A stretch of 32,000 nucleotides of DNA from an archaeon (GCA_041657425.1 JBBABY010000002.1:110602-142601), one strand, 5' to 3'. Counted from the stretch's first letter, positions 4,012 through 32,000 are shown. Notes: generated by a model not told the origin, from the sequence alone. Program-made: numbers and translations.

Positions 4012-4056
4012 TTACTCTAATTGAGTTCTACCATAGAATCCTTTTGGGAAGTAGAT
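4012..4056 (-). pseudogene. displaced duplicate of the livM 3' end (encodes IYFPKGFYGRTQLE-stop)
   Basis: The reverse complement reads ATC TAC TTC CCA AAA GGA TTC TAT GGT AGA ACT CAA TTA GAG TAA. These are the same 14 residues plus stop as the real livM end at 5364..5408. The first 32 nt are identical and the last four codons and the stop differ only synonymously. Confidence 0.85.
4025..4056. repeat. 32-bp perfect direct repeat, left copy (GTTCTACCATAGAATCCTTTTGGGAAGTAGAT)
   Basis: Exact match to 5377..5408, compared by eye base by base. Confidence 0.9.
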
Positions 4057-5123
4057 CAGTATTTATTTAAAATTATTTCTAAATGTTTTAAAAATTCTTT
4101 AGTATCTAAAAAATAATTGGGATATGCTTTTTTAAGATCTTGCATATTGTCAGCACTAACTAATACAACGTCATATTCGTTTCTATTATATATTTTCTTT
4201 TCTGCAGAAGAATATGCTAGGAGTGCTTCTTTTTCTTCTCTTTTAGTGAATGCAGAAATATTTAGTCTTTCAAGAACTGTATCTAATTCTAAAAGATAAA
4301 ATTGTATGTTTTTCTTTTTTTTAAAATTATCAAAGTATTTTACAGATTCAGTCCAGTGCTTCATTTTCTGTTTTACTTGTAACTTTTTTTCTAGTTCTTT
4401 AATTTGTAAATAAAGTTCTTTTTCATTCTGAGGTGTTTGAGAAATTATCGGAGTATTTTCTAGTCTTGCAAATGCGGAACTTACTAATTTAAAAAAAGCT
4501 TTCCAGTTTTCCTCTCCTTGATTAGATTTTATGGCTTGTCTTGTAAAAAAATCAACAGTTTCTACTGCTGTTGCCCAAAGGTGTTGTAATTTAGATCTTA
4601 TTTGCACTTCTACTAATAGACCATTATATTCTTTTTTTCCTTTATCGCTACTATATCTATATACTAAATGTATACTTCTATATCCATCTAATTTAGGGCT
4701 TGAAATATAATCTTTTACATTTACTTTTTTATGCTTTATATCCCCGTTATAATAATAGGTTTCATATAATTCTCTCACTTGTTTAATGTCCGACATCACA
4801 ACTCTACAACCAGCAATATCTTGCATTTGAGTTAATTTCATTGTAGGACAATTATCATTATATTTTCTATTTAGTTTTTTAAATATCGAAGAAATTCTTT
4901 TTAATCTTTGAGCAGAGAGTGCATTTTTGTCTATTTTTTCAGAAACTCTTTTTAATCTATTTTTAAATACTTGTAAGGGATAGTTATGCATTGTCTTCCA
5001 GCTATTCACAATTTCTAATGCTTCATCTATTTCTGCTGCAGAATGCTCTTTATTATCAGATAGAATTATAGCTGAATTATTTATTTTTGATTTTGAGATT
5101 TCGTTAATATCTAGTTGCTCCAT
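4056..5123 (-). CDS. RelA/SpoT-domain nucleotide pyrophosphokinase (small alarmone synthetase-like / possible toxSAS-like)
   Basis: RelA_SpoT synthetase motifs are present: MQDIAGCRVVM, DGYRSIHLVYRY, LLVEVQIRSKLQHLWATAVE. There is a ~100-aa N-terminal region and a ~130-aa predicted helical C-terminal region with no Cys. Confidence 0.85.
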   Translation of the reverse strand: MEQLDINEISKSKINNSAIILSDNKEHSAAEIDEALEIVNSWKTMHNYPLQVFKNRLKRVSEKIDKNALSAQRLKRISSIFKKLNRKYNDNCPTMKLTQMQDIAGCRVVMSDIKQVRELYETYYYNGDIKHKKVNVKDYISSPKLDGYRSIHLVYRYSSDKGKKEYNGLLVEVQIRSKLQHLWATAVETVDFFTRQAIKSNQGEENWKAFFKLVSSAFARLENTPIISQTPQNEKELYLQIKELEKKLQVKQKMKHWTESVKYFDNFKKKKNIQFYLLELDTVLERLNISAFTKREEKEALLAYSSAEKKIYNRNEYDVVLVSADNMQDLKKAYPNYFLDTKEFLKHLEIILNKY

Positions 5124-5376
5124 AATAATATATTATTGCATAACCTTTTTAAATATATCAAATTGCGCGGTTATCGTGTAAAAAAAGTGTCAAATTGCAA
5201 GGAGAATTAAAAAAATCTAATTTTCCTACTAACCTTTATATTTAAAGCATTACCAAACACAAGTACAAAAATCATTTTTAATTATTAAAAAATTTATGTC
5301 AAATTGCGCGTGCACTCCAAAAAAAAAATGCTGAATTGCGCAGACCCTAATTATCAACATTTACTATTCCAACTGC
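4057..5376. mobile_element. putative integrated single-gene cassette (RelA/SpoT-domain gene plus its 240-bp repeat-containing upstream region), no recombinase gene
   Basis: It is bounded by the 32-bp direct repeat that duplicates the 3' end of livM. The livM-proximal copy has GC-richer synonymous codons (ACG CAG TTG GAA TAG). The distal copy has AT-rich ones (ACT CAA TTA GAG TAA). Confidence 0.6.
5159..5343. promoter_or_regulatory. four direct copies of a CAAATTGCGCG-like 12-mer upstream of the RelA/SpoT gene
   Basis: The copies are CAAATTGCGCGG (5159), CAAATTGCAAGG (5191), CAAATTGCGCGT (5300) and TGAATTGCGCAG (5332). They form two pairs with 32-nt start-to-start spacing. The first copy abuts a TATA-like GATATATTTAAAAA (minus strand) about 25-40 nt before the ATG. 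Confidence 0.5.
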
Positions 5377-6236
5377 GTTCTACCATAGAATCCTTTTGGG
5401 AAGTAGATTAAGATTATCAAAAGCAAAAGAGCAAAAAGAATCTGTCTTCCTGGACCAACAATTGATGAAGGAAGACCAACAAATCTTAAAATTTCTGGAA
5501 TAAGTGTAAGAATGATTGTAGCTACTACTGTTCCTTCAATGGAAGCAAGTCCTCCAACAATAATTATTGAGATAACTGGGATAAGTGCCATGAAAGTAAA
5601 AGAAGAAGGGTCAATGAAAGTTATGAAGTGAACAAACAACGAACCTGCGATACCAGCAAAGACTGCAGAGATGATAAGCCCAATTGTTTTAATCTTAAAT
5701 GTATTTTTTCCAAGAGCCTTAACACAGTATTCATCATCTCTTGTTGCTTCAAGTAGTTTACCAAACTTAGAGTTTACTATTCTTTGAATAATAAAGTAAC
5801 AAGCAACAGTAACTATTACTGTAAATATTAGATAAGAAAGATTACTACGAAAAACTAAACCAAAGATGTCTGGTTTTGGTATTCCTGAAATCCCAAATGG
5901 CCCTCTTGTTAAGTCTATCCAGTTGATAAGAAGAGCATAGACAAGAAACGAAAACGCCATTGTCCCTAAGGCAAGATAATCTCCTTTAAGTTTATTTGTT
6001 GGTACTGAAAGGATTAGTGCTGCAACTCCTGCTATTATTCCTGCTAAGAGAAACGCAAGAAGGAAAGGGACACCATTCATCACAAGTATTGCTGAAGTGT
6101 AAGCTCCGATTCCAAAGAAAGCAATGTGACCAAAGTTAAGTAGTCCTGTGTAACCAATAGAAACTTGTAAAGCTAAACAAAGTATTAACTGTATTGCAAT
6201 AATAATTAACAAATGTATAAAATAATCAATAATCAT
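5364..6236 (-). CDS. livM: branched-chain amino acid ABC transporter permease, LivM-type
   Basis: Polytopic membrane protein with the LivM signature GYTGLLNFGHIAFFGIGAYTSAIL. Its start overlaps the livH stop by 4 nt. Confidence 0.9.
   Translation of the reverse strand: MIIDYFIHLLIIIAIQLILCLALQVSIGYTGLLNFGHIAFFGIGAYTSAILVMNGVPFLLAFLLAGIIAGVAALILSVPTNKLKGDYLALGTMAFSFLVYALLINWIDLTRGPFGISGIPKPDIFGLVFRSNLSYLIFTVIVTVACYFIIQRIVNSKFGKLLEATRDDEYCVKALGKNTFKIKTIGLIISAVFAGIAGSLFVHFITFIDPSSFTFMALIPVISIIIVGGLASIEGTVVATIILTLIPEILRFVGLPSSIVGPGRQILFALLLLIILIYFPKGFYGRTQLE
5377..5408. repeat. 32-bp perfect direct repeat, right copy (inside the livM 3' end)
   Basis: Exact match to 4025..4056. Confidence 0.9.
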
Positions 6237-7108
6237 TTATTATTCCACCCTTTGTTTTTTCCTAAGATTCCATTAGGCATAAATAATAAAAATATAAATA
6301 ATAACATAAATGCAATTGCATCTTTGTAACTAGATGGCAAGAACCATATTCCATAATTTTCTGTAATCCCTAAGAGAAACGAACCAATGATTGCTCCAGG
6401 AACAGAAGTTATCCCGCCAATGACTGCTCCAGTAAATCCTTTAATCATTAAATTACTTCCCATTGTTGGTTCAACATTTAGTTCTAGAGCAACTAGTACT
6501 CCTGCAACTGCTGCTAATACTGAACCAATAATGAAACTATATGCAAATAATTTCTTTGAAGAAATTCCCATCATTTCAATTAACTCTGGAGAATCAGCAA
6601 CTGCTCTAAATTCTTTTCCTAGTTTTGTTTTTTTCATGAAAAGTAATAGTCCAACTAACAAGGCAATAGAAGTTCCAATAATTATTAACTGAACAGGAGT
6701 GATTATTGCTCCCAGGAAATTAATACCATGTCTTTGGAAAGATTGTATAATTTTAACATCTGCTCCAAAGAAGATTAAGATTAATGATTCAATTAAAATT
6801 AACAAAGCAATACTTGCAATCAAGAGGATTGTTGGCGATGCCTTTCTGCTTCTTAGTTTATCATAAACTAGATAATTGATTAAAAAACCAAATCCACCGG
6901 CCACTATAAGAGTAACAATTATTGCAAGCCACAATGGTAAACCTAAAAGATTAAAAAAAGTAAATAACATATAACTAGAAACAACAATTACTGCTCCATG
7001 AGCAAAATGAACAAATTTGTTTGTAGAATAGATTAAAGAAAAACCACAAGCAACAAGAGCATATATTGCTCCAGCAATGAGTCCATTGATTAATAATTGT
7101 AAAAACAT
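6233..7108 (-). CDS. livH: branched-chain amino acid ABC transporter permease, LivH-type
   Basis: N-terminus MFLQLLINGLIAGAIYALVACGFSLIYSTNKFVHFAHGA is typical of LivH. Polytopic. Confidence 0.9.
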   Translation of the reverse strand: MFLQLLINGLIAGAIYALVACGFSLIYSTNKFVHFAHGAVIVVSSYMLFTFFNLLGLPLWLAIIVTLIVAGGFGFLINYLVYDKLRSRKASPTILLIASIALLILIESLILIFFGADVKIIQSFQRHGINFLGAIITPVQLIIIGTSIALLVGLLLFMKKTKLGKEFRAVADSPELIEMMGISSKKLFAYSFIIGSVLAAVAGVLVALELNVEPTMGSNLMIKGFTGAVIGGITSVPGAIIGSFLLGITENYGIWFLPSSYKDAIAFMLLFIFLLFMPNGILGKNKGWNNK

Positions 7109-8484: not shown

Positions 8485-9261
8485 ATGGAAAACATAGAAA
8501 CTAAGGGGATAACCACTTCAAACATAACTGCTAGTTACTTTGAAGATATTGGCTTTAAAAAAAAGTACGCTAATGTTTACTTAGCTCTTCTTAAGTTTGG
8601 GCATATGGGCATACCTGACATTGTTAAAAAAACTGGAGTTCAAAGAAGTTATCTTTACGACATTCTTGATGAATTGATTGAAAAAGGAATTGTTGGAAGT
8701 TATGTAAAAAATAACACTAAAATATTTTTTGCTGATGATCCAGAAAAAGTTCTAAAGATAATTAATAAGAAAGAAGAAAATATTAAGAATTTTAAAAAAG
8801 AATACACTGACATTCTTCCAACGTTAATTTCAATTAGTAGTAAAAATGAAAAAGATGAATTATTTTCATATGAAGGAAAAAAAGGAATTAAAAATATCTA
8901 TGATGACATTTTAAAAGAAGGGAAAGACTTTGTTTGTTTTGCAGGAACTGGATTTCCTGACGATTTTTACAAAGACTTTGTAAAAACATTTAATATTAGA
9001 TGTAAGAAAAAAGGAATTAAATACAAACTAATATTTTCGGACGCACTTAAATCTCGCGGTCCATTAGAAGTACACAAAGATGTTTGTGAAATTAAATATT
9101 TACCAAAAGAATATAATTATTCTTTTGCTATGCATGTTTATGGAGACAAAGTTTCAATCATTATTTGGCAATCACAAATGGGTATTGTAATAAAAAGTAA
9201 AAATGCTGCAAACGGATTTGCGGATTACTTTGAAATGATATGGAAGATTGCTAAAGAATAA
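8485..9261 (+). CDS. TrmB-family transcriptional regulator
   Basis: N-terminal winged HTH (FEDIGFKKKYANVYLALLKFGHMGIPDIVKKTGVQRSYLYDILDELIEKGIV) plus a C-terminal TrmB-type domain. Close paralog of 10507..11307 (both end YFEMIWKIAKE). Confidence 0.8.
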   Translation: MENIETKGITTSNITASYFEDIGFKKKYANVYLALLKFGHMGIPDIVKKTGVQRSYLYDILDELIEKGIVGSYVKNNTKIFFADDPEKVLKIINKKEENIKNFKKEYTDILPTLISISSKNEKDELFSYEGKKGIKNIYDDILKEGKDFVCFAGTGFPDDFYKDFVKTFNIRCKKKGIKYKLIFSDALKSRGPLEVHKDVCEIKYLPKEYNYSFAMHVYGDKVSIIIWQSQMGIVIKSKNAANGFADYFEMIWKIAKE

Positions 9262-23821: not shown

Positions 23822-24439
23822 ATGGCACCAAAAAGACCAGCAATAAGAATTAAGAAAAAGACTATTGTTAAAAAACAAGTACCAATTGTTCAACTTGAGA
23901 ACAATAGAAATATTGCCGGAAGAATAAGAGATTTAGTAAGCCGAAATCCAGACATTACAGTAATTGAATTTATTGCTAGGTCCAGATATAAAAATCCAGA
24001 AAATAAAAAAATTATTGATTTGTTAAAAAAAGAATTTGGAGATTTAAAGATTGCAGAATTAAAGACTCCACAGATAGATTATTTATTTGCAATGTATACT
24101 GAAGAACCCGCACTTAGAGAACAAGCACTTAAAAGAATGATGGCTGATAAGTTACAACTAAGTCACAGAATACCAAGACAAAGAATTGATTTTGTAAATA
24201 AATGTAAAAAAGACAAAGCATTTGGAGCAAGAACCGAATTATTATTACACTTTTTTAGTAAAAAAGCATTTAATAGAAAAACATTAAAAGAAGATGAAGC
24301 TGTTTTAAAAGTTTTTGGAAATATAAAATTAAAATATTATAATAATGAAATGAATCATTATTGGCATTTACAAAAAGAATTTCCAGATCTTACACTTAAT
24401 GAAATAAAAGAACTTACAAAATATACAAAAGAGAACTAA
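23822..24439 (+). CDS. hypothetical basic protein
   Basis: 205-aa ORF with a Lys/Arg-rich N-terminus (MAPKRPAIRIKKKTIVKKQ). GAGGA lies 8 nt upstream of the ATG. Confidence 0.55.
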   Translation: MAPKRPAIRIKKKTIVKKQVPIVQLENNRNIAGRIRDLVSRNPDITVIEFIARSRYKNPENKKIIDLLKKEFGDLKIAELKTPQIDYLFAMYTEEPALREQALKRMMADKLQLSHRIPRQRIDFVNKCKKDKAFGARTELLLHFFSKKAFNRKTLKEDEAVLKVFGNIKLKYYNNEMNHYWHLQKEFPDLTLNEIKELTKYTKEN

Positions 24440-24909
24440 AAATATTCCTTAAACTCTTCAATTACTTTTTTCATAAATTCAATTTGTATTGGAAATAAGA
24501 TAATTGATTCAAAATTATTTTTATTAAACCATTTAATTCCTGCAACTTCTTCTACTTGTAATTTAAATTCTTGATTTGGATTTTTTAATTTTAATACGAA
24601 AATAACTCTTTCTTGTCCATCGTACCAAACTCCTTTCTTTTCGAACTTCTTTTGACTTACTTCTTTAGGCCAAGTAAATTTATCTGTATATTTACTTTTT
24701 CCAATTATATCATAATCCAGTTCTGTAATTCCAATCTCTTCAAGCATTTCTCTTTTTAGAGCAGTTTCAAAATCTTCATTTCCTTCAACCCCACCAGCTG
24801 GGATCTTCCAATAGTCTGGTTCACTTCGATCTTTCTTAACTCCAAGAACCATTAAAAATTCTTTTTTATCATTTATTATAAAAGCCGAAGCTCCTTGTCT
24901 GTAGTTCAT
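24436..24909 (-). CDS. NUDIX hydrolase
   Basis: Nudix box GGVEGNEDFETALKREMLEEIGI. GGAGG precedes the ATG. Confidence 0.85.
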   Translation of the reverse strand: MNYRQGASAFIINDKKEFLMVLGVKKDRSEPDYWKIPAGGVEGNEDFETALKREMLEEIGITELDYDIIGKSKYTDKFTWPKEVSQKKFEKKGVWYDGQERVIFVLKLKNPNQEFKLQVEEVAGIKWFNKNNFESIILFPIQIEFMKKVIEEFKEYF

Positions 24910-24931: not shown

Positions 24932-25696
24932 CTAATTTTTTAATTTAATTGGAAGTAACAAATTTGTTTTTTTCTTGTATAACAAATATTCTTTATTATC
25001 CTTAAATTGAGCATCATACTTCTTTTCTAAAGTTGGTATCCCAGTTACAAACAATAACAAAAAGATAATAAACAAAGGACTAATTACTGAATAAATAAGA
25101 GTAATGGAATTAAGATAAAACGCAGTGTAAATAAAAATTCCTGCCCAACAAAGCATTTCTCCAAAATAGTTTGGATGTCTTGCGTATGTCCATAACCCTG
25201 AGTTAATCCATTTATCTTTATTATTTTGTTTAAAATTAAACTTTTGAATATCTGAAATTGCTTCTATTGATAATCCTAAAGCCCAGATTGCCACTCCAAT
25301 TAGACTTAGATAATTAAAATTGGAATTTGAGTTTGAACTAAAAATAAATAATGAATTAATCATTATTACAAAAACAGAAACTCCTTGTAAGAACCAAAAC
25401 ATAAAAAACTTAAAAAAATTATTTCTAATATCATCAAACCTTGTGTCTCTTCCAATCTTATTTATCCTATAAAATAAATAAGAGCCTAATCTTAAAGCCC
25501 AAAGAAGAATCATTAATAACAATATTATTCTTACTGCATCATGAGTTGAACTAAAAAATGCAAAAAAAGCAAGAATTACAAAAGACAAAGAATAACTTAA
25601 ATCTGTTAACTTGTCTGTTTTAAATAAGAAAGCTGGAATGAATAATATCATCTGAATTATTAATGAAATAACTAAATAATAAAATAATTCTAACAT
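24932..25696 (-). CDS. DUF1295 / steroid-5-alpha-reductase-like polytopic membrane protein
   Basis: The C-terminal block SGLWTYARHPNYFGEMLCWAGIF is characteristic of the family. Start set to the ATG at 25696 (MLELFYYLV...). The ORF-track extension to 25783 reads through the GC-rich repeat and starts on a TTG. Confidence 0.8.
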   Translation of the reverse strand: MLELFYYLVISLIIQMILFIPAFLFKTDKLTDLSYSLSFVILAFFAFFSSTHDAVRIILLLMILLWALRLGSYLFYRINKIGRDTRFDDIRNNFFKFFMFWFLQGVSVFVIMINSLFIFSSNSNSNFNYLSLIGVAIWALGLSIEAISDIQKFNFKQNNKDKWINSGLWTYARHPNYFGEMLCWAGIFIYTAFYLNSITLIYSVISPLFIIFLLLFVTGIPTLEKKYDAQFKDNKEYLLYKKKTNLLLPIKLKN

Positions 25697-25709
25697 TGTT
25701 TTTACCTTA

Positions 25710-25802
25710 AAGCTCCAGACGCGCTCAGTTAGGACCATACGCAATCTGGCTGGGCGCGAGCCGACCGCAACCGGCTCACCCAAAAATTAAAAGCGCACGA
25801 TT
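25710..25802. repeat. junction element A: tRNA-Thr 3'-end core AAGCTCCAGACG plus right arm interrupted by a 52-nt GC-rich insertion
   Basis: The core is at 25710..25721. The arm CGCTC...CCCAAAAATTAAAAGCGCACG matches B and C. The insertion at 25727..25778 contains hairpin GAGCCG-N8-CGGCTC. There is no left arm, and the element directly abuts the DUF1295 start. Confidence 0.8.
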
Positions 25803-25852
25803 TTATTCTAATAACCATTTCTATAAAGGCATATATTTAATAGCTTTATTAC

Positions 25853-27205
25853 TTATTTTTTCTTATTCGCACTTATTTCTTTTGTAATGTCTTTTGTAGA
25901 ATTGCCTAAGTTTTCAGATATTATCTTTGATTTTCTCTGTGATTCTGAAATATTTAAATAACGGCCTAATACTTTATCTACTTCTTTAAAACCATAAGCC
26001 TCTTCAAGCTCACTGAACATATAACATTTTAATGTGTATCTTGGTCCTAATTCATCTACTATTTCTTTAAGACTATATTCTTTTAAATACCCTAAATTAC
26101 CAACAACCGTGTCCCTATAGCCAGCACCTCCTACGCGTATTATTATATCCTGTGTTTTTAAAATTCCTCCGTGTGCTCTTGTAAACTCTCTAAGACCTAC
26201 TACCTTAAATATATATGGGCGGCCTCCACTCAACGAATTATGCTCGGATTCATACATTTTTTCCAATTTTTCCCAACCGCCAAACGCTTGTGCAATTTTA
26301 TCAAGACCAAATTTGCGGGTTGTTGCTTTAAGACCCCAATAATCTAGAGTATTTTTTACACCAAAAGCGTCTGCAAATTCTGTAATAATATATGGGCAAT
26401 CTTTCATTTCATAATCCCGAGGCGCTTCCGAAATTACATAGCTATACTTTAAAAAAGCATCTAGTATACGATCGTTTTTAAATAATTGTGCAGCAGCTTT
26501 AAGGCCACCTGCAGCTTCTATAGTTGGTTCTAATCCTATTTCTGCTACAAACTGACGAAAATTCGCAACTTTTGCTAGTTCTTTAATATTATACATTTTC
26601 ATAACTGGACTCACACCGGCTCCGTGAACTACCCAATCTAAACCAAATACATCTAACATATCTTTAATGCCATATTCTTTAATCATATATTTAATTAAAT
26701 CTTTTTCCGTATATCTTTCAGAACCACCAATTTTTTCACCATAATAATCTATTATACTTTCTAATTCACGATCATGGAATTTATCTCTTCCTGATTTTTT
26801 TTCATCAATTTTAAATAGTTTTACAGTTTCTTTTAAACCAAAAATATCCATAATAACATAAATTGGAATCCCTTTTGCTTTTAATTGTCTTGCATCAATT
26901 CCTTTTGAAAGCAAGAATTGGGCAGGATTTTTTAATTTTCTAGAATCTGAAAGTAAATGTTTTATTTTTAAAATAGATAATTTTTCAGAATATCGTTTTT
27001 TAGACTCTTCAATTAACGAGATAATTTTTTCTTGATCATATGTTTTTAATTCTTCTTTTATCTGTCGATTAGTTTTTTGTTTTGCAGTTCCTTTTGATTT
27101 TTCTAATGAAACAACGCCATTAGGCTTTTGTTTGCCTACAAAATTAGAATTAATCAATCTCCCTGTTTTTGTTTGTATCATTTTTGATTTTGGCGCCAAT
27201 GGCAT
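25853..27205 (-). CDS. hypothetical protein with basic N-terminus and recurrent [FY]G-x-K-x-x-[LV]-x-x-[FW]G-like motifs
   Basis: 450-aa ORF with GGAGAGG upstream of the ATG. The motif recurs as IFGLKETVKLF, EYGIKDMLDVFGL, AFGVKNTLDYWGLK, KFGLDKIAQAFGG and AYGFKEVDKVLG. Confidence 0.6.
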   Translation of the reverse strand: MPLAPKSKMIQTKTGRLINSNFVGKQKPNGVVSLEKSKGTAKQKTNRQIKEELKTYDQEKIISLIEESKKRYSEKLSILKIKHLLSDSRKLKNPAQFLLSKGIDARQLKAKGIPIYVIMDIFGLKETVKLFKIDEKKSGRDKFHDRELESIIDYYGEKIGGSERYTEKDLIKYMIKEYGIKDMLDVFGLDWVVHGAGVSPVMKMYNIKELAKVANFRQFVAEIGLEPTIEAAGGLKAAAQLFKNDRILDAFLKYSYVISEAPRDYEMKDCPYIITEFADAFGVKNTLDYWGLKATTRKFGLDKIAQAFGGWEKLEKMYESEHNSLSGGRPYIFKVVGLREFTRAHGGILKTQDIIIRVGGAGYRDTVVGNLGYLKEYSLKEIVDELGPRYTLKCYMFSELEEAYGFKEVDKVLGRYLNISESQRKSKIISENLGNSTKDITKEISANKKK

Positions 27206-27316
27206 TCTAAATCCTCTCCATTTAATGTATTAAATTTATAAAAATACATAAGTACATAACATTTAAATGTATTTGGATTATGAGGTGTTGAGATAAAACA
27301 GTCTATAGATTAAAAA

Positions 27317-27416
27317 CCAGGAGTTTGAACTAACAGTTAAAACCATTGCGCGCTAGCCGAGCGAAACCGGCTAAGCTCCAGACGCGCTCTTACCCAAAAG
27401 TTAAAAGCGCACGATT
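27317..27416. repeat. junction element B: left arm (T-loop-like CCAGGAGTTTGAAC, GCGCGC, hairpin TAGCCG-N8-CGGCTA) + core + right arm
   Basis: 27347..27384 is identical over 38 nt to 31933..31970. 27374..27413 is identical over 40 nt to 29555..29594. Confidence 0.85.
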
Positions 27417-27452
27417 AGTAATATTTAAATACATTTATAATCTATATAAATT

Positions 27453-28022
27453 ATGCAAATTACAATCATCCCTAAAAAAGATTTGAAATTAGCAGATGAT
27501 CTTCAACAACAAATTCTTAATCCCACCCATAAAAGAAGATATAGGACTTTCGGATGTATCCATAAAAACTATAACAAAGAACCTTCTTTATTTATTGGTG
27601 CATATGATAAAGGAAAATTAATAGGAATTGCCTTTGGTTTCATAAAAAAATCAAAAATATTACTGGGAGAAATGGCAATTTTAGAAAATTACAGAAATAA
27701 AGGTATTGGGCAGAAACTTCTATCTTTTTTTGAAAAACAAGCAAAAAAGTTAAATAAAAAGTATATAGAATTAGGTGCTTGGGGTTCTGCTGAAAAATTC
27801 TATTTAAAAAATAACTATAAACCCTTGATTTTCGTACAAATATATCATCAAGATGTTCCAAAGAACTATAAACAATTAGAATTTGAGATTATTAAAGAAA
27901 CTAACTATGCAGATTCAAAAAGACTTTGGATAAAAAAAAAATATAATCCTAAATTAAAAGAAATATTAAAGAAGAAATTTAATGCATATAATGTTATTTA
28001 TTTATTTAGAAAAGAATTCTGA
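27453..28022 (+). CDS. GNAT-family N-acetyltransferase
   Basis: MAILENYRNKGIGQKLLSFFEKQAKKLNKKYIELGA matches the acetyl-CoA binding motif A. Confidence 0.75.
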   Translation: MQITIIPKKDLKLADDLQQQILNPTHKRRYRTFGCIHKNYNKEPSLFIGAYDKGKLIGIAFGFIKKSKILLGEMAILENYRNKGIGQKLLSFFEKQAKKLNKKYIELGAWGSAEKFYLKNNYKPLIFVQIYHQDVPKNYKQLEFEIIKETNYADSKRLWIKKKYNPKLKEILKKKFNAYNVIYLFRKEF

Positions 28023-28235
28023 AGCAGAAATTATTTTTAATAAATCTCTTCTAATATCATCAGCAATTAAATAATTTTTAGATTTCTTATTTATTTTCAA
28101 GTTATTTTTTATAGCAATTATTGCAGAATATATTTGTTTACTATTTTTGTGATCATATTCTAAAATTATATTTTTATGTGTAATAATAAAATATATTTTT
28201 TTAATATCTTTTCGATATAATATTTTTACAGCCAT
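28002..28235 (-). CDS. small protein downstream of the radical SAM gene (possible PqqD/RRE-like partner, unproven)
   Basis: 77 aa from the ATG at 28235, which lies 2 nt after the radical SAM stop with GGTGA upstream. The ORF-track start at 28253 is a TTG. Its size and position fit a RiPP recognition partner, but I cannot see a diagnostic motif. Confidence 0.5.
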   Translation of the reverse strand: MAVKILYRKDIKKIYFIITHKNIILEYDHKNSKQIYSAIIAIKNNLKINKKSKNYLIADDIRRDLLKIISASEFFSK

Positions 28236-28237
28236 TC

Positions 28238-29272
28238 TTATTTCACCAAACAAAAATCAATATCTTCATATATTGATTTATCTAAAAGGTCTAATTGAAC
28301 TGGACATCTTGCACACTTATCTCTTAATTTACAATTAGGACAACCAATTATTTGTTGTTTTCTCCAATTTTTAAATTCTTTAGAATTCCATACTTTGATT
28401 ATGTTTTTTGGAAATTTAAGTTTTACTCCAAAATCATTTTTAAATTTAGTATATTCAATCAACGGACAAGGATAAGCTATCTTTTCAGGAGAAATGTGAT
28501 AATAATGAATTCCTGCACCGCATTCAAATACAAATTTTTTACCATCTATTAATTTAAAATCAGATATATCTAATTCTATGTCATATAAAACACATTGTTT
28601 CTTCAATTTATTTAAAAACGATTTATTCGCAAATAATTTATATATTTTATTAGTATCTATATCTAATTTGTTGGTTTCGCCCCTTCCTTTTTTCAATAAG
28701 GGGCCAATTACCCATTTTTTCACACCTAAATTAGATAAAAATTTAGGAAATCCCAATAATTGGTTATAATTCTTAGAGTGAACTAATGTACCTACCGTAA
28801 CAAATATACCTTCATCTGTAAATCGTTTTATTGTTCCTATAGTTTTTTTAAATACAAACTTATTCCTATTAATAGGATCTCTAATATATGTGTGCGAATT
28901 TGAAGTAATTCCATCTAAAGAAATCTTAATTGACAGAACCATATTAGACTGTTTTATCTTTTCAAACAAACTATCTGAAAAAATTCCATTAGTTGTTAAG
29001 CAGTATGGTAATTTTATCTTATCTAAATAATTTATTAAATTAATAAAATCAGAATATCTTGTGGGTTCTCCACCAGATAAATTAACATATAACACTTCAT
29101 CTTTTATAAGGTATAACATCTTTTTAAGAAAGTTAAATGGGATATCTGTTTTTTTAAATCCAAAACTGCCATAGCAATGAGAACAACGCAAATTACAATC
29201 TGTAGTTATAGATATATGGATATGAAGAGGATTGTCTTTAGGTAACTTTGCTTTAATTATTTCAGAATCCAT
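28238..29272 (-). CDS. radical SAM enzyme with C-terminal SPASM-type auxiliary cluster domain (peptide maturase-like)
   Basis: The CxxxCxxC motif lies in ITTDCNLRCSHCYG. The GGEP motif lies in NLSGGEPT. The C-terminal Cys set is FECGAG...YPC...GCPNCKLRDKCARCP...DFC. Confidence 0.85.
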   Translation of the reverse strand: MDSEIIKAKLPKDNPLHIHISITTDCNLRCSHCYGSFGFKKTDIPFNFLKKMLYLIKDEVLYVNLSGGEPTRYSDFINLINYLDKIKLPYCLTTNGIFSDSLFEKIKQSNMVLSIKISLDGITSNSHTYIRDPINRNKFVFKKTIGTIKRFTDEGIFVTVGTLVHSKNYNQLLGFPKFLSNLGVKKWVIGPLLKKGRGETNKLDIDTNKIYKLFANKSFLNKLKKQCVLYDIELDISDFKLIDGKKFVFECGAGIHYYHISPEKIAYPCPLIEYTKFKNDFGVKLKFPKNIIKVWNSKEFKNWRKQQIIGCPNCKLRDKCARCPVQLDLLDKSIYEDIDFCLVK

Positions 29273-29274
29273 AA

Positions 29275-29400
29275 TTAATATTGATTATGGCCGCATTCAT
29301 CTGAATCAAATTTAGAAAGCACCTTAAATTTAATCTCTTTTCCTTTTACTTTTATTTTTTTTGATTCTGTATTAACTGCAATTGCTGCTGTTGATATCAT
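29275..29400 (-). CDS. 41-aa candidate RiPP precursor peptide MISTAAIAVNTESKKIKVKGKEIKFKVLSKFDSDECGHNQY
   Basis: Not in the ORF track because it is under 60 aa. I translated it by hand. Its TAA stop lies 2 nt before the radical SAM ATG. TTTATAAATATTTTT (TATA-like) lies about 35-50 nt upstream. It has a Lys-rich leader and an acidic Cys/Tyr C-terminus. Confidence 0.6.
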   Translation of the reverse strand: MISTAAIAVNTESKKIKVKGKEIKFKVLSKFDSDECGHNQY

Positions 29401-29491
29401 AAAATTACCAAATTACTTTAAGATTAAAAATATTTATAAATAGTAACTATTTTACAAATTTTTGGAATTTACAAAAAAATTAAAAAAATAA

Positions 29492-29597
29492 GTGCCTGGA
29501 GCTTTGAACCGATATTTAATCAGTAAATATCTATAGTTACACGAAAAGAAATCAAGCTCCAGACGCGCTCTTACCCAAAAGTTAAAAGCGCACGGTT
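29492..29597. repeat. junction element C: left arm (GTGCCTGGAGCTTTGAAC...TTAATCAG...) + core + right arm, lacks the GCGCGC-hairpin module
   Basis: The core is at 29554..29565. The right arm is identical to B. By eye the left arm is largely identical to that of D over roughly 55 nt, with scattered substitutions. Confidence 0.85.
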
Positions 29598-29621
29598 TTT
29601 AAAAAACAATACACAATTAAC

Positions 29622-31760
29622 CTATCTTTCTATTGTATATTTATATCTACAATTTAGATTTGTTTCAGATATAAAATCTAACAAATCAGGATTAGAATCG
29701 TCACAATCTTTTCTTGCATTACAGAAAGCTGGGCAAGTACTTGGTTTCTCTTCAGAGGTTCCCCAGTTACAATAGCCATCGCCATCTTTATCTTCACAAT
29801 TAATGGCGTTATTAAAACCTGCTGGCCAATATGATTGATCCGTTGGTGGTGTTATCGATCCTTCAAAACTAGCAATACTAATAAATTCATCTGGAGCAAC
29901 ATCGATGTATGCGTACCCATTTTCCCCCCAATCAGTTCCCCAACTGTTTTTAAATATCCAGATAGTATTATTAGATGGATCATATTCTACAATATTATCT
30001 AAAGATTTATCACAAGTAATAAAACCAGGAAATAACGAACCATTAATACACTCTCCATTAATTGAAATATTATTTTGTAAGCAAGACGAATTATTAATTT
30101 CCACCCATTTTAAATTGTAAGGATCATTAATAAATATTCTTTCGCATTTAAGCGTTTTAATGCCGCTAATTGTTTCAGCAAAAATTATATTGGTATTATT
30201 AGTACTATTATTTATTATATTTACGTTGTATGATACATAAATTAAATTGTTTTCATCAGACATTTCACAATTTCCCCACTCAAAAGATGAATTAATACAT
30301 ATTTGATTATACCCTGAATTTTCTATAATTTGCCAATTTTGTTTGATATATCCAACTAATACCATTGCGTGATTCATAGGAGATATTTCTGAAAATAATG
30401 GCCCAAATTTTATTATTTTTTCTTTAATTTTTTCCTCATTTAAAGGAAATAGGCCTATAAGATCAGCATTATAATGACGCACATAACTATTTATTTCAGA
30501 ATTAAGCCAAACCCTGTCATTCCAATTACCACAAATATTATCGTATGAACAGTTTGCTGGATTAATTGAATCTCTTTCAACATATAAATCACAAGATTCA
30601 TCTGCCACGCCTTCATTGATTATTTTACAACTATGGGCGTGCCTTAGATTACAATCATCAAAACTGTAATTAGAATCTGGATAAGGATATATCCAACAAT
30701 CTGCAATCATTTGTTCAGATAAATCTAAACCTAAATACTGATTATAATATAAATTAACTTGCGATTCTAAGGTGCCAATTGCAGTAAAAAGCATACAAAG
30801 CCCCGCAAAAAATCCTTGATCCTTAACAGGCGTCATCCAGTTTTCTCCATGTCTATTTCTCCAGTCCCAAGAGTCTGGAAGTATGTAATTTGGCTCTGCT
30901 TCAGGGGGATTTACTGGCGGTTGTATTGCCGTATTATCTACATTTTTTGGACTATTATTTATTGTGTCTTCTAAAGTAAATATTCTGCCCTTATAATTTA
31001 AAAATCCTTGAAGGTTTGGTAGATATTCTGGTATTGTTCCGTCTTCGCTTCTAAATAATTTCTTTTTTTCTTCATAAGATAATTTAGAAACAGAAGTTTC
31101 TCCTGCAGTCCAACTACTTTGAGCAGAATTATAGTTTTTTATTTTTGCTTGATTTTGTGATTTTAGTGTTTGTTGTTTATAACTTTTTAGGTCTTTTACT
31201 TCTGTAAATGATTTGCTTTCTGAAAGAGTATTGATATTTGAAATTGTTAATGTAGCATCTTCTGTTTGGATTTTAATAAACTTAGGTGTTATTGGTTCTT
31301 CAAAAACACAAGTTTCTTCACAGATATCCTCAAAATCTATATTTTTACTATTGTTTGCTAAAAGATTATCCATTTCATAAACTAAATATTCTTTATTTTC
31401 AGAGTCTACAAGAATTATTCTTATAAGTCCTGCTTTTGATATTAAAGTCGCGTTACCAGTTACTGATAAAGCAATAATTGGGTTATCTAATTTTAATTCA
31501 AACTTTATATTTTCTTTAAAGGTTTGTGAAATTGAAGTGTTGTCTAATGGTTCTTTTGTTGGAATATTAAATTCAGTTAATTTTTGAGAACTTAATAAAT
31601 TATTTTCATTGGCTGGTTGTTCTAATTTTCCTTCTGAATTCATTATTCTTTTTGCATCACCAGTATTGCTTTTTATTAAAAAAACAGATAGTAAAATTGC
31701 AATTAGAAATATAAAAATTATTAAAATTATAAAATAGAGCTTTTTATTTTTTTTTGACAT
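29622..31760 (-). CDS. membrane-anchored papain-like (C1A) cysteine peptidase with large insertions and a Cys/Asp-rich C-terminal module
   Basis: The catalytic blocks are VKDQGFFAGLCMLF (Gln/Cys), NHAMVLVGY (His) and IFKNSWGTDWGENGYAYI (Asn). The N-terminal signal anchor is LYFIILIIFIFLIAILLSVFLI. The C-terminus is CEDKDGDGYCNW...CDDSNPDL. The first ATG is at 31760, and the ORF-track start at 31769 is a GTG. Confidence 0.85.
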   Translation of the reverse strand: MSKKNKKLYFIILIIFIFLIAILLSVFLIKSNTGDAKRIMNSEGKLEQPANENNLLSSQKLTEFNIPTKEPLDNTSISQTFKENIKFELKLDNPIIALSVTGNATLISKAGLIRIILVDSENKEYLVYEMDNLLANNSKNIDFEDICEETCVFEEPITPKFIKIQTEDATLTISNINTLSESKSFTEVKDLKSYKQQTLKSQNQAKIKNYNSAQSSWTAGETSVSKLSYEEKKKLFRSEDGTIPEYLPNLQGFLNYKGRIFTLEDTINNSPKNVDNTAIQPPVNPPEAEPNYILPDSWDWRNRHGENWMTPVKDQGFFAGLCMLFTAIGTLESQVNLYYNQYLGLDLSEQMIADCWIYPYPDSNYSFDDCNLRHAHSCKIINEGVADESCDLYVERDSINPANCSYDNICGNWNDRVWLNSEINSYVRHYNADLIGLFPLNEEKIKEKIIKFGPLFSEISPMNHAMVLVGYIKQNWQIIENSGYNQICINSSFEWGNCEMSDENNLIYVSYNVNIINNSTNNTNIIFAETISGIKTLKCERIFINDPYNLKWVEINNSSCLQNNISINGECINGSLFPGFITCDKSLDNIVEYDPSNNTIWIFKNSWGTDWGENGYAYIDVAPDEFISIASFEGSITPPTDQSYWPAGFNNAINCEDKDGDGYCNWGTSEEKPSTCPAFCNARKDCDDSNPDLLDFISETNLNCRYKYTIER

Positions 31761-31872
31761 AAATATCACAATCTATTTATGGTTTGAAACAATTTAAATA
31801 GCTTGCCAATTTTATTTATGTCAGGAACGGCAATAAAATAAAAGCAAAAGAAATTAAAAGTAATAAGAACAA

Positions 31873-31959
31873 GCACCTGGAGATTTGAACTGCTTTTTAA
31901 TCAGTATTTATCAGTAGTTACAATTAGAATTCTGCGCGCTAGCCGAGCGAAACCGGCTA
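31873..31959. repeat. junction element D left arm (GCACCTGGAGATTTGAAC...GCGCGC, hairpin TAGCCG-N8-CGGCTA) abutting the intact tRNA-Thr 3' end
   Basis: Homologous to the left arms of C (distal part) and B (proximal 26 nt identical). Confidence 0.8.
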
Positions 31960-32000
31960 AGCTCCAGACGAGATTTGAACTCGTGACCTCGTCCTTACCA
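31960..32000 (-). tRNA. tRNA-Thr (anticodon GGU), 3' portion only; the gene continues beyond the window
   Basis: The minus strand reads ..TGGTAA GGACG AGGTC ACGAG TTCAAAT CTCGT CTGGAGC T. These are, in order: anticodon loop with GGT, anticodon stem 3' strand, 5-nt variable loop, 5-bp T stem with a canonical 7-nt T loop, acceptor 3' strand and discriminator U. No CCA is encoded. Confidence 0.75.

Follow-up and report, generated by a model that had tools for sequence, protein, structure and literature searches.

What stacked three small integrase-less modules between a DUF1295 gene and the 3′ end of a tRNA-Thr gene is the question raised by the right-hand end of the window, the 32,000-nt stretch of archaeal DNA analyzed here, whose host is a tiny Iainarchaeum-like DPANN archaeon. 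The main answer, to which we give a probability of roughly 0.55, is that the 6.3 kb from DUF1295 to tRNA-Thr(GGT) form a tRNA-anchored accretion array, with modules brought in by site-specific recombination and an integrase that probably acted in trans. The genes and modules concerned are as follows.

24932..25693, minus strand: DUF1295 gene (Pfam; orthologues in L094 and L095), B′ flank, ancestrally downstream of the tRNA-Thr attachment site
25853..27205, minus strand: module 1, 450-aa ORFan
27453..29400, no strand: module 2, whole
27453-28022, plus strand: module 2, GNAT acetyltransferase
28002-28253, minus strand: module 2, 83-aa ORF (77 aa as called on L087)
28238-29272, minus strand: module 2, radical-SAM/SPASM maturase
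29275-29400, minus strand: module 2, 41-aa peptide
29622..31760, minus strand: module 3, secreted papain-family (C1) cysteine protease, 712 aa from ATG (Pfam PF00112; gene call on L103)
31959..31970, minus strand: core copy D, within the tRNA (three last T-stem nucleotides, acceptor 3′ strand, discriminator and one trailer nucleotide)
31960..32000, minus strand: tRNA-Thr(GGT), 3′ 41 nt from anticodon loop to discriminator, gene truncated at the window end; sequence identical to the 3′ portion of the ARAGORN tRNA at 38-111 in L087 (same sequence, 70 nt longer) and identical in L103

The core AAGCTCCAGACG occurs four times, always on the plus strand, with starts at 25710, 27373, 29554 and 31959, exactly where the earlier note had placed it; 0.02 occurrences are expected by chance, and none of 100 shuffles reached four. 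The distances from core to core are 1663, 2181 and 2405 bp, in agreement with the unit lengths given before. Read on the opposite strand, the core is the 3′ end of tRNA-Thr(GGT), as had been claimed, except that the T stem contributes three nucleotides rather than four. Extension past position 32,000, which had been proposed as a check, completes a normal tRNA, since ARAGORN calls a full 74-nt tRNA-Thr(GGT) on contigs that prolong the window end by 70 and 118 nt. At the other end, the orthologous loci L094 and L095 carry a tRNA-Thr 3′ remnant 13 nt upstream of the DUF1295 ATG, which bears out the description of DUF1295 as the flank; the gene is the original downstream neighbor of tRNA-Thr. In L095, 39 nt match the 3′ half of tRNA-Thr (in a T-arm variant), and a called upstream ORF reaches through them to the DUF1295 start. 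By our reading, this ORF is an int(N)-like integrase N-terminal fragment, and an SSV-type element has its classical right-hand junction (attR) here.

The junctions around the four cores, named A to D, are composed of the following pieces.

25706..25803, minus strand: junction A ("A-type"), with P-arm (25778-25800), GC hairpin GAGCCG-N8-CGGCTC (25758-25777), spacer and core (25710-25721); abuts the DUF1295 start
27317-27331, minus strand: older scar B′, AGTTCAAACTCCTGG (p = 0.005)
27317..27372, minus strand: rest of junction B, with hp arm (27347-27372) followed by a box-like piece and older scar B′
27373..27416, minus strand: junction B, P-arm and core (27373-27384), 41 nt identical to junction C
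29490..29510, minus strand: older scar C′, degenerate T-loop-to-end copy GGTTCAAAGCTCCAGGCACTT, also complementary to the core
29554..29597, minus strand: junction C, P-arm as the imperfect palindrome GCGCTTTTAAC-TTTTG-GGTAAGAGCGC, then core (29554-29565)
31871..31891, minus strand: older scar D′, degenerate tRNA-Thr T-loop-to-3′-end copy AGTTCAAATCTC--CAGGTGCTT (21/23 positions, 2-nt gap; 0/5000 shuffles score as well)
31933..31958, minus strand: hp arm after the tRNA, with GC hairpin TAGCCG-N8-CGGCTA; identical to the arm at junction B (family D6)

The sharing of arms between B and C, B and D, and C and D was recovered in full: 41 nt are identical between B and C (27373-27413 = 29554-29594) and 38 nt between B and D (27347-27384 = 31933-31970, repeat family D6), while the left arms of C (29475-29541) and D (31856-31922) are 78% identical (repeat family D3). 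The P-arm is a 27-nt imperfect palindrome with arms complementary at 9 of 11 positions; it is not significantly tRNA-like (p = 0.19) and does not have the character of an integrase N-terminal coding end, both of which count against the accretion array. Junction A does hold the same arm as B and C, with "TT" replaced by 51 nt; the 52-nt split described before is no one-off event, as the arrangement of about 95 nt (arm, GC hairpin, spacer and core) is found again in three independent relatives; L060/L078/L081 and L079 all show it. The hairpin of the hp arm has 100% of cells paired across four variants, with compensatory pairs at 2 of 6. The degenerate T-loop/acceptor-like piece that had been noticed belongs to a set of significant direct copies of the tRNA from T-loop to 3′ end (p < 0.0002 for D′; p ≤ 0.01 for the others, C′ standing at p = 0.011), which are also partly complementary to the core; core and downstream piece form 8–11-bp inverted repeats 55–90 nt apart, and folded junction C gives z = −4.4. 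Because each junction also holds such an older copy, more than three events are indicated, and the earlier count of exactly three integrations gives way to at least seven scars.

Searches of the array with Pfam, NCBIfam and PHROGs detected no recombinase, the uncharacterized remainder being the 450-aa ORFan, and tblastn with the relatives' integrase against the window gave nothing at E ≤ 1 and no int N- or C-terminal remnant, in line with the earlier description of the units. The ORFan matches nothing in NCBIfam, in PHROGs, among PDB sequences or, above the cut-off, in Pfam; a set of 5.8 billion proteins contains only 2 homologues of it, and its AF2 model is poor and all-helical. Its gene is seen with three different pairs of ends, i.e., in variable contexts. 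The cassettes apparently bring their own promoters. In GC content, the modules match the remainder of the window, which speaks against the accretion array, as there is thus no compositional sign of recent import.

Further evidence comes from relatives, in which left flanks of three kinds and right flanks of at least five kinds occur in changing pairs, with the switch precisely at CGTCTGGAGCT; 21 distinct left/core/right combinations meet at this 11-nt core. For instance, the hp arm is found after the tRNA and after the P-arm; the GTCTT arm after the tRNA, a T-loop fragment and the A-spacer; the GATT arm after the P-arm, the A-spacer and a T-loop fragment; and an integrase C-terminal fragment, int(C), after the tRNA in L081 and L085 and after the P-arm in L084, whose contig has P-arm, core and int(C) in series. 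A reshuffling of flanks with this precision is the hallmark of site-specific recombination acting on the 3′ end of the tRNA. Related modules with NYN, AAA-ATPase and radical-SAM genes stand in different orders, and cassette presence and order, which had been suggested for comparison across relatives, proved polymorphic: ATPase precedes NYN in L079, against NYN, radical-SAM and ATPase in L078, the NYN modules being 97.8% identical over 829 nt and the ATPase modules 96% over 762 nt. Against the accretion array stand the 38–41 nt shared by junctions, which make re-ordering possible by homologous recombination alone, and a 5.3-kb block in L077 between the same scars with a class II aminoacyl-tRNA synthetase, RpiB and a PALP enzyme, which means that the scars do not always bracket accessory cargo; in addition, neither a circular form nor an empty site was observed.

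A candidate enzyme for such recombination is present in relatives, where an SSV-type "suicidal" integrase (PF16795, E = 3e-28) lies directly on the same tRNA-Thr. Its frame is open through the tRNA 3′ half, many gene calls of its homologues (77, some named Candidatus Iainarchaeum) begin with tRNA-derived peptides, and in L085 the integrase adjoining tRNA-Thr is followed by more than 10 kb of small uncharacterized genes. It has been reported that PF16795 integrases split their own gene upon integration, that excision requires an intact integrase in trans, and that tandem integrated elements exchange modules (PMC8371274). The att sites of the relatives' integrases are about 40–45 nt long, from the anticodon loop or stem to the tRNA 3′ end (L078, L086, L095), against 12 nt that the cassette junctions have in common with the tRNA and 17 nt among themselves, which again counts against the accretion array.

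Under the main reading, foreign DNA would have been joined repeatedly to the tRNA by site-specific recombination, with the exchange confined to 11–12 nt, CGTCTGGAGCT[T], at the 3′ end of the tRNA. With each event, earlier insertions would be pushed downstream and a scar left, in which the arm of the element itself (the 27-nt P-arm palindrome) precedes a copied tRNA end. The window retains four cores without mismatch and, as older pieces, three degenerate copies from T-loop to 3′ end, with three modules between them. The enzyme would most likely be supplied in trans by SSV-type PF16795 tyrosine integrases of co-resident elements, which in relatives occupy this same tRNA and are linked to the same core. 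As the core is retained in every scar, scars may act as secondary sites, and modules could therefore be inserted, lost and re-ordered. We infer that integrases of the PF16795 family use the short core with its arm as a substrate, and that active trans-mobilization of single cassettes still moves the modules as units. Decay of larger elements, together with recombination between scars, would give the same picture as trans-mobilization. The integrase-less modules are thus best read as inserted and shuffled by a trans-acting integrase or as decayed remnants later shuffled by recombination.

Decay alone ("gene capture") is an unlikely explanation that nevertheless deserves weight: the modules would be remnants of SSV-type or other elements that serially entered tRNA-Thr and lost the integrase and most genes, they would not be mobile, and strain differences in order would come from homologous recombination between 38–100-nt scars. 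It is consistent with split suicidal integrases that trap elements in the chromosome and with tandem elements that swap modules by homologous recombination (PMC8371274), with scar pairs 55–90 nt apart that have almost nothing between them and resemble near-complete deletions, with the housekeeping-type block bounded by scars in L077, and with the integrase element of L081, which ends inside a radical-SAM gene and so points to deletion after integration there; the hp arm, moreover, has GGTTTCGCTCG in common with the 5′ end of int(C) in L084 and may be an integrase remnant. What argues against decay alone is that P-arm-core-int(C) in L084 and tRNA-core-int(C) in L081 have only the 11-nt core in common left of the integrase, too short for ordinary homologous recombination, that the P-arm is 19/19 identical or nearly so across genomes with orthologous proteins only 65–85% identical, which suggests constraint on the arm, and that the window has no detectable int N- or C-terminal remnant. 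An improbable variant assigns the exchange to a host Xer-type or other chromosomal tyrosine recombinase acting on the P-arm palindrome, with modules like IMEX or Acinetobacter pdif modules and a tRNA-like core that is incidental. The two 11-nt inverted arms (9/11) around a 5–6-nt spacer, a downstream "box + T-loop" piece of the same geometry (8/11), and further breakpoints at the left edge of the P-arm and directly after GGGTRAG fit this idea; the segment common to all re-assorted junctions, however, is the core and not the palindrome, all arms have a single orientation, and the array is anchored on a tRNA, whereas Xer-dependent elements are not known to be.

The junctions could also be functional RNAs or regulatory signals, such as a terminator hairpin with a promoter or a processing signal that resembles a tRNA, spread with genes by duplication, without being recombination sites, which is slightly less credible still. 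GC-rich hairpins conspicuous in a 28% GC genome, the two compensatory pairs in the hp stem, the fold of junction C, conserved 5′ arms ending in TTTAAATA-type boxes ahead of the following gene, and a core-less P-arm-like box upstream of a GNAT gene in the more distant L089 would agree with this, but Rfam matches are absent at E ≤ 1, junctions A and B fold no better than shuffles on the tRNA-sense strand, wobble pairs favor opposite strands in different stems and so fit DNA inverted repeats better than one RNA, and exact flank re-assortment at the core is left unexplained. A dispersed MITE-like repeat that stems from tRNA-Thr and inserts between genes genome-wide is a very improbable reading of the junction: although core and downstream piece do make inverted repeats, short-read contigs break at junctions and copies also adjoin tRNA-Leu in L070 and L077, the junction motifs are confined to 25706-32000 and absent from the other 25.7 kb of the window, sub-modules occur separately rather than as a single unit, and real matches were found in 1 of 185,579 GTDB species representatives (3 contigs, all tRNA-linked arrays) and only 8 times in 241 million metagenome records. 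The livM cassette, which the earlier note had counted in the same family, has no junction motif in common with the array. Scarcely credible is a classical integron or integrase-less attC cluster (CALIN), despite a similar layout of small, mostly co-oriented cassettes between 60–130-nt imperfect inverted-repeat elements and the fact that integrons are known in archaeal MAGs, including DPANN lineages (PMC9668308). Neither the window nor any related locus has an IntI gene, TTTTAAC misses R″ (RYYYAAC) by 1 position and GTTCAAA misses R′ (GTTRRRY) by 2, the anchor is a tRNA 3′ end and not an attI site, and the cassettes appear to be transcribed from their own promoters. The array is a shuffled integration hot spot and not a new kind of integron.

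Among the closest known systems are the SSV-type integrated elements at archaeal tRNA genes, on which She et al. reportedly worked and to which the "gene capture" model belongs. As in the array, these elements target the 3′ part of a tRNA gene and lie between direct repeats of the tRNA end; in relatives, PF16795 int(C) is fused in frame to this very tRNA, and the L095 ORF read as int(N) runs through the tRNA-Thr 3′ half beside DUF1295. As hosts of the characterized suicidal integrases, the review PMC8371274 names Sulfolobales, Thermococcales, Archaeoglobales and Methanosarcinales, DPANN never being mentioned, and the present Iainarchaeum-like DPANN host falls outside its list. The window further differs in modules of 1.6–2.4 kb without integrase fragments, in a shared segment of 12 nt against about 45 nt, and in an element-side arm that is a conserved non-coding palindrome and not an integrase coding end. 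In Streptococcus, ICEs and integrase-less cis-mobilizable elements (CIMEs) accrete in tandem at tRNA or gene 3′ ends. CIMEs likewise are integrase-less segments between att-like sites, in tandem at one attachment site, which may in principle be mobilized by the integrase of a related element using the same site; the present case is archaeal, involves another integrase family, and has modules that re-assort in order between strains and whose mobilization is putative. Integrons and CALINs, including archaeal ones (PMC9668308), resemble the array in small cassettes with recombination elements between them, variable order and a recombinase that can be absent. The "integron-like" label of the earlier note holds as an analogy only, since the array has neither IntI nor the attC consensus, is tRNA-anchored, has cassettes seemingly with their own promoters, and uses a double-stranded tRNA-end core where integrons use a single-stranded, folded attC. 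Among Xer-dependent systems, IMEX elements and pdif modules are integrase-less and bounded by short imperfect palindromes of 11-5/6-11 geometry. The array resembles them in modules without an integrase and in this geometry, whereas its arms are in direct orientation only and its common exchange point is the tRNA-derived core beside the palindrome.

Recomputation placed the 12-mer AAGCTCCAGACG, hereafter the core, at 25710, 27373, 29554 and 31959 (junctions A to D), on the plus strand in all four cases, against a chance expectation of 0.02 occurrences. The core-to-core spacings are 1663, 2181 and 2405 bp; 41 nt are identical between junctions B and C and 38 nt between B and D, and the left arms of C and D share 78% identity, so that the four cores, common arms and spacings described in the earlier note are borne out. 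With the gene truncated at base 32000, neither ARAGORN nor Rfam reports a tRNA within the window. Two public contigs carrying the window's sequence, L087 (from the MAG GCA_041678985.1) and L103, reach 70 and 118 nt further, respectively, and on both of them the tRNA-Thr expected past 32000 is present as a normal, complete tRNA-Thr(GGT) of 74 nt. The core comprises the last 3 nt of the T stem, the 3' strand of the acceptor, the discriminator and one trailer base, and the tRNA lies on the minus strand, as does the majority of the region's genes. A split or permuted tRNA gene was ruled out, since the tRNA-Thr is contiguous and its 5' acceptor strand GCTTCTG does not match GCTCCAG in the downstream pieces; ARAGORN run on the junctions gave no match. 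Upstream of the tRNA, 37 nt (L087) and 85 nt (L103) of sequence were gained. These stretches (L087 1-37, L103 1-85) differ directly upstream of the tRNA and the contigs are identical downstream of it; L103 has a 121-aa ORF there as in the related loci L079 and L081, and L087 is like L085. The tRNA itself may be a breakpoint; alternatively, one of the two contigs may end in chimeric sequence.

Read in the orientation of the tRNA, the array is built from the core, from a P-arm preceding it (a 27-nt imperfect palindrome), from arms following it (hp, with a GC hairpin, or GATT) and from older, degenerate tRNA-end scars:

Structure of the array, minus strand, from the tRNA to DUF1295
First stretch (junction D): tRNA, core, hp arm with its GC hairpin, older scar D', then the C1 protease
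Second stretch (junction C): P-arm, core, GATT arm, older scar C', then the module 2 genes in the order 41-aa peptide, radical-SAM/SPASM maturase, 83-aa ORF, reversed GNAT gene
Third stretch (junction B): P-arm, core, hp arm, older scar B', then the 450-aa ORFan
Last stretch (junction A): P-arm, hairpin, spacer, core, 13 nt, DUF1295 ATG

The P-arm has the form GCGCTTTTAAC-TTTTG-GGTAAGAGCGC, with its arms complementary at 9/11 positions. In the hp stem, all pairs are formed in four variants, and compensatory pairs number two. The older scars are significant direct copies of the tRNA from the T loop to the 3' end; for instance, D' matches the tRNA at 21/23 positions, a score reached by 0/5000 shuffles. 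They are partly complementary to the core, which accounts for the strong fold of junction C (z=-4.4). The inserts downstream of the complete tRNA-Thr are bounded by repeats of its 3' part in direct orientation, namely four 12-nt cores and three degenerate copies of 21-23 nt. This brings the tRNA-end scars in the window to at least seven rather than four, and the three successive integrations proposed earlier are too few. Rfam gave no match over the whole window at E<=1. The P-arm was considered as a decayed anticodon arm of tRNA-Thr, for which the similarity is not significant (p=0.19). Its reading as the end of the coding sequence of an integrase N-terminal fragment is rejected because the P-arm contains a TAA in the integrase frame and the upstream sequence is unrelated in every copy. 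The start of DUF1295 is the ATG at 25693, in agreement with the public gene call; a mechanical 283-aa ORF with a TTG start (24932-25783), running DUF1295 through junction A, starts too far upstream. The module genes are preceded by conserved 5' arms that carry TTTAAATA-type boxes. In the more distant relative L089 (4669-4697), a P-arm-like box, GCACTTTTAACTTTTTGGAAAGAGAGCAC, stands upstream of a GNAT gene without any core, and the promoter regions flanking this box and belonging to the window's GNAT gene are homologous.

The downstream flank can be traced through DUF1295 orthologues. In L094 and L095, the closest of them (83% and 79% protein identity), a remnant of the tRNA-Thr 3' end lies 13 nt before the ATG, which identifies DUF1295 as the original downstream neighbour of tRNA-Thr and, in turn, all window DNA between the two as inserted. 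In L095, the remnant matches the tRNA-Thr 3' half over 39 nt, its T arm being a variant, and the ORF called upstream passes through it up to the DUF1295 start; this ORF can be read as an integrase N-terminal fragment, in which case the locus would show the classic right-hand end of an element of SSV type. L089 (DUF1295 74% identical) has no tRNA nearby, and synteny is therefore lost at that distance. No empty site was seen via the DUF1295 orthologues. In L080 (2640-2726), a remnant of 24-27 aa of an integrase C-terminus follows just after a NUDIX gene homologous to that of the window (24436-24909), and a 212-aa gene occupies the position of DUF1295.

The array carries no recombinase detectable by Pfam, NCBIfam or PHROGs, tblastn with the integrases of three relatives found none in the window (E<=1), and no integrase gene split into N- and C-terminal fragments is present at the window's junctions; as far as detectable, the earlier claim of a recombinase-less array stands. 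The 450-aa ORFan was tried as a hidden recombinase and gave no family or PDB match; it has only two homologues, and its AF2 model (pLDDT 60, all-helical) is too poor for structure search, with no recognisable fold. Across its occurrences, the 450-aa module has three different pairs of ends. A separate exact-protein look-up (715-aa start) gave no match. The GC content of the modules equals that of the genome. Within module 2 (28238-29400), the radical-SAM/SPASM maturase is directly preceded by a 41-aa ORF with the C-terminal sequence ...DSDECGHNQY, and the two likely form a small RiPP (ribosomal peptide) set.

Relatives were collected with a P-arm pattern search of 185,579 species representatives, metagenome contigs and viral contigs; two loci reached via integrase or DUF1295 genes were also included in the array comparison. 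Among the species representatives, the matches came from a single genome, Candidatus Iainarchaeum sp. STF1_294, in which they fell on three contigs; the metagenomes gave eight real contigs, and the viral contigs gave two chance matches, both inside coding sequence. The hairpin pattern gave 41 viral matches, probably unrelated, as the pattern is short and GC-rich. In several of the genome and metagenome loci, and in the two added ones, an array follows either the window's tRNA-Thr, in identical or almost identical form, or copies of the tRNA's 3' part:

Gene order at related loci
L079: tRNA-His, two small ORFs, tRNA-Thr, AAA_14/DUF4143 ATPase, A-type junction (P-arm, GC hairpin, spacer, core), NYN, P-arm-core
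L078: PF16795 integrase (reversed), tRNA-Thr 3' half from the anticodon loop onwards, NYN, A-type junction, radical-SAM (271 aa), junction, ATPase
L060: tRNA-Thr, hp arm, radical-SAM (424 aa), FtsJ/S4 methyltransferase, A-type junction, radical-SAM (271 aa), junction
L081 and L085: tRNA-Thr, 20 nt, PF16795 integrase C-terminal fragment, frame uninterrupted across the 3' half of the tRNA; the fragment in L085 is followed by small unknown genes over more than 10 kb
L084: P-arm, core, the same integrase fragment as in L081 and L085

Nucleotide comparison of L078 and L079 revealed the same modules in different orders, the NYN module at 97.8% identity over 829 nt and the ATPase module at 96% over 762 nt, and the order polymorphism anticipated among relatives is thereby found. 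Scars were also observed next to tRNA-Leu(AAG), which is complete in L070 (50-260 region) and whose 3' end is also present in L077 (1-5520); 14 nt on, a 24-nt tRNA-Thr fragment runs from the T loop to the end. In L077, the block behind tRNA-Leu (5.3 kb) encodes a class II aminoacyl-tRNA synthetase, a PALP enzyme, RpiB and a nucleotidyltransferase, ends in P-arm-core and is bounded by the same scars as the tRNA-Thr arrays, and L070, from another sample, has other genes behind the same tRNA-Leu.

The point of recombination was located by tabulating every copy of CGTCTGGAGCT, one mismatch allowed, with both flanks, which gave 21 distinct flank combinations. To the left of the core stand three kinds of flank (tRNA or T-loop, P-arm, A-type spacer); to its right stand the hp, GTCTT or GATT arm, DUF1295, the C-terminal fragment of the integrase or one of a few further sequences. 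Left and right kinds are freely mixed, and the switch of sequence falls exactly on the core edges. The core is the sole segment common to tRNA-core-integrase in L081 and P-arm-core-integrase in L084, which is too short for ordinary homologous recombination; the usual att site of the integrase is about 45 nt. Such free re-assortment is the trace expected of site-specific exchange at a tRNA 3' end.

It has been reported that PF16795 comprises 'suicidal' SSV-type integrases, with attP within their own gene, which is split on integration; that excision requires an intact integrase in trans; and that module exchange is known in tandem integrated elements (PMC8371274). The integrase is present in L078, L081, L084, L085 and L086, and the ORF in L081 is open through the tRNA. 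The neighbouring integrase that the earlier note proposed to look for is thus found in relatives, at the same tRNA-Thr in L081 and L085. The protein collection holds 77 homologues, some named Candidatus Iainarchaeum, and many of their gene calls start with tRNA-derived peptides. With the array lacking an integrase and PF16795 sitting at the relatives' tRNA, a trans-acting integrase is the most economical source of recombination. L086 encodes a full-length 335-aa integrase (5735-6742), and its tRNA-Thr 3'-half copy (8904-8942) lies 2.1 kb downstream, not inside the integrase ORF; this may be a non-suicidal arrangement within a 'suicidal' family.

Two other features lie elsewhere in the window. 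At the livM locus (4013-5415), a RelA_SpoT-domain gene (355 aa, 4056-5123, minus strand) lies between 51-nt direct repeats, 86% identical (4013-4063 and 5365-5415), the second of which is the 3' end of a livM-type permease gene (5364-6236). The arrangement suggests an insertion with duplication of a gene end; its proposed kinship with the array falls away, as the locus and the tRNA-Thr junctions have no motif in common. Between 8485 and 15613, a TrmB-family regulator is paired three times with a periplasmic-binding-protein gene in divergent placement; the pairs are paralogous, the first and second being 2043-2046 nt apart with 74-78% DNA identity and the third about 4.3 kb further on.

The interpretation in the earlier note is partly supported: the array of tRNA-anchored, integrase-less modules is real, with exchange at the tRNA-end core and order polymorphism, and it results from more than three events; active mobilisation in trans is a putative part of the reading. 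A wider proposal, to which we assign a probability of only about 0.3, is that DPANN archaea of the Iainarchaeum lineage keep a tRNA-anchored cassette platform from which a recombinase in trans captures, excises and re-orders modules. The modules would be small, promoter-bearing and integrase-free, ending in the conserved 27-nt palindrome and the last 11-12 nt of tRNA-Thr, and the recombinase would come either from a passing element, as its suicidal SSV-type integrase, or from the host, as a Xer-like enzyme. A serious rival is that the array consists of decay products only: the sites seen with the relatives' integrases are half-tRNAs of about 40-45 nt as against a 12-nt core, the P-arm is neither an integrase coding end nor significantly tRNA-like, neither a circle nor an empty site was seen, the L077 block is scar-bounded and module GC is genome-like, and it is on these grounds that decay keeps its weight. 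A Xer-type recombinase acting on the P-arm keeps a low probability on account of the dif-like geometry of two arms complementary at 9/11 positions around a spacer of 5-6 nt. A MITE-like dispersed repeat is very unlikely, since the window's other 25.7 kb contain no copy of the junction motifs; the few copies in the collections are all clustered, and sub-modules are found separately, not as one unit.

If modules do exchange at the tRNA-end core, this would indicate how genome-reduced, host-dependent DPANN archaea gain and shuffle accessory genes such as proteases, peptide-maturation sets, NYN nucleases and ATPases, with the modules spared the cost of a recombinase of their own; it would widen the range of the self-splitting SSV-type integrases to include DPANN archaea and a satellite-like role, and it makes a candidate exchange site concrete, namely P-arm plus 12-nt core. 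If the array is decay products only, it is still a clear case of integrase-mediated gene capture in a lineage whose integrated elements are hardly described.

In integrons, IntI is encoded next to attI and a Pc promoter, and attC sites carry R'' (RYYYAAC), R' (GTTRRRY) and paired L''/L'. The cassettes had been called integron-like, and membership of the integrons or CALINs is excluded because there is no IntI and, by eye, no attC consensus (the junction motifs are off by 1 and 2 positions from R''/R'), the array starts at a tRNA, and boxed 5' arms precede the module genes; no tyrosine recombinase of any family was detected in the window. The cassette platform, if true, would be a functional analogue of integrons made of tRNA-end att sites. 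Xer/dif modules (IMEX, pdif) have at their ends sites that resemble the host dif, organised 11-6-11; the P-arm was compared at the level of geometry, in which it is alike. SSV-type integrated elements are matched in tRNA insertion and in direct repeats of the tRNA 3' part, but they carry their own PF16795 gene, split at the ends, and the window array has neither. Integrase-less cis-mobilisable elements in tandem accretion are flanked by att-like sites of an integrase-bearing element at the same site, and in them excision or integration is driven in trans. The array is a variant of what is known at tRNA genes of archaea, where integrative elements stand in tandem and genes are captured.
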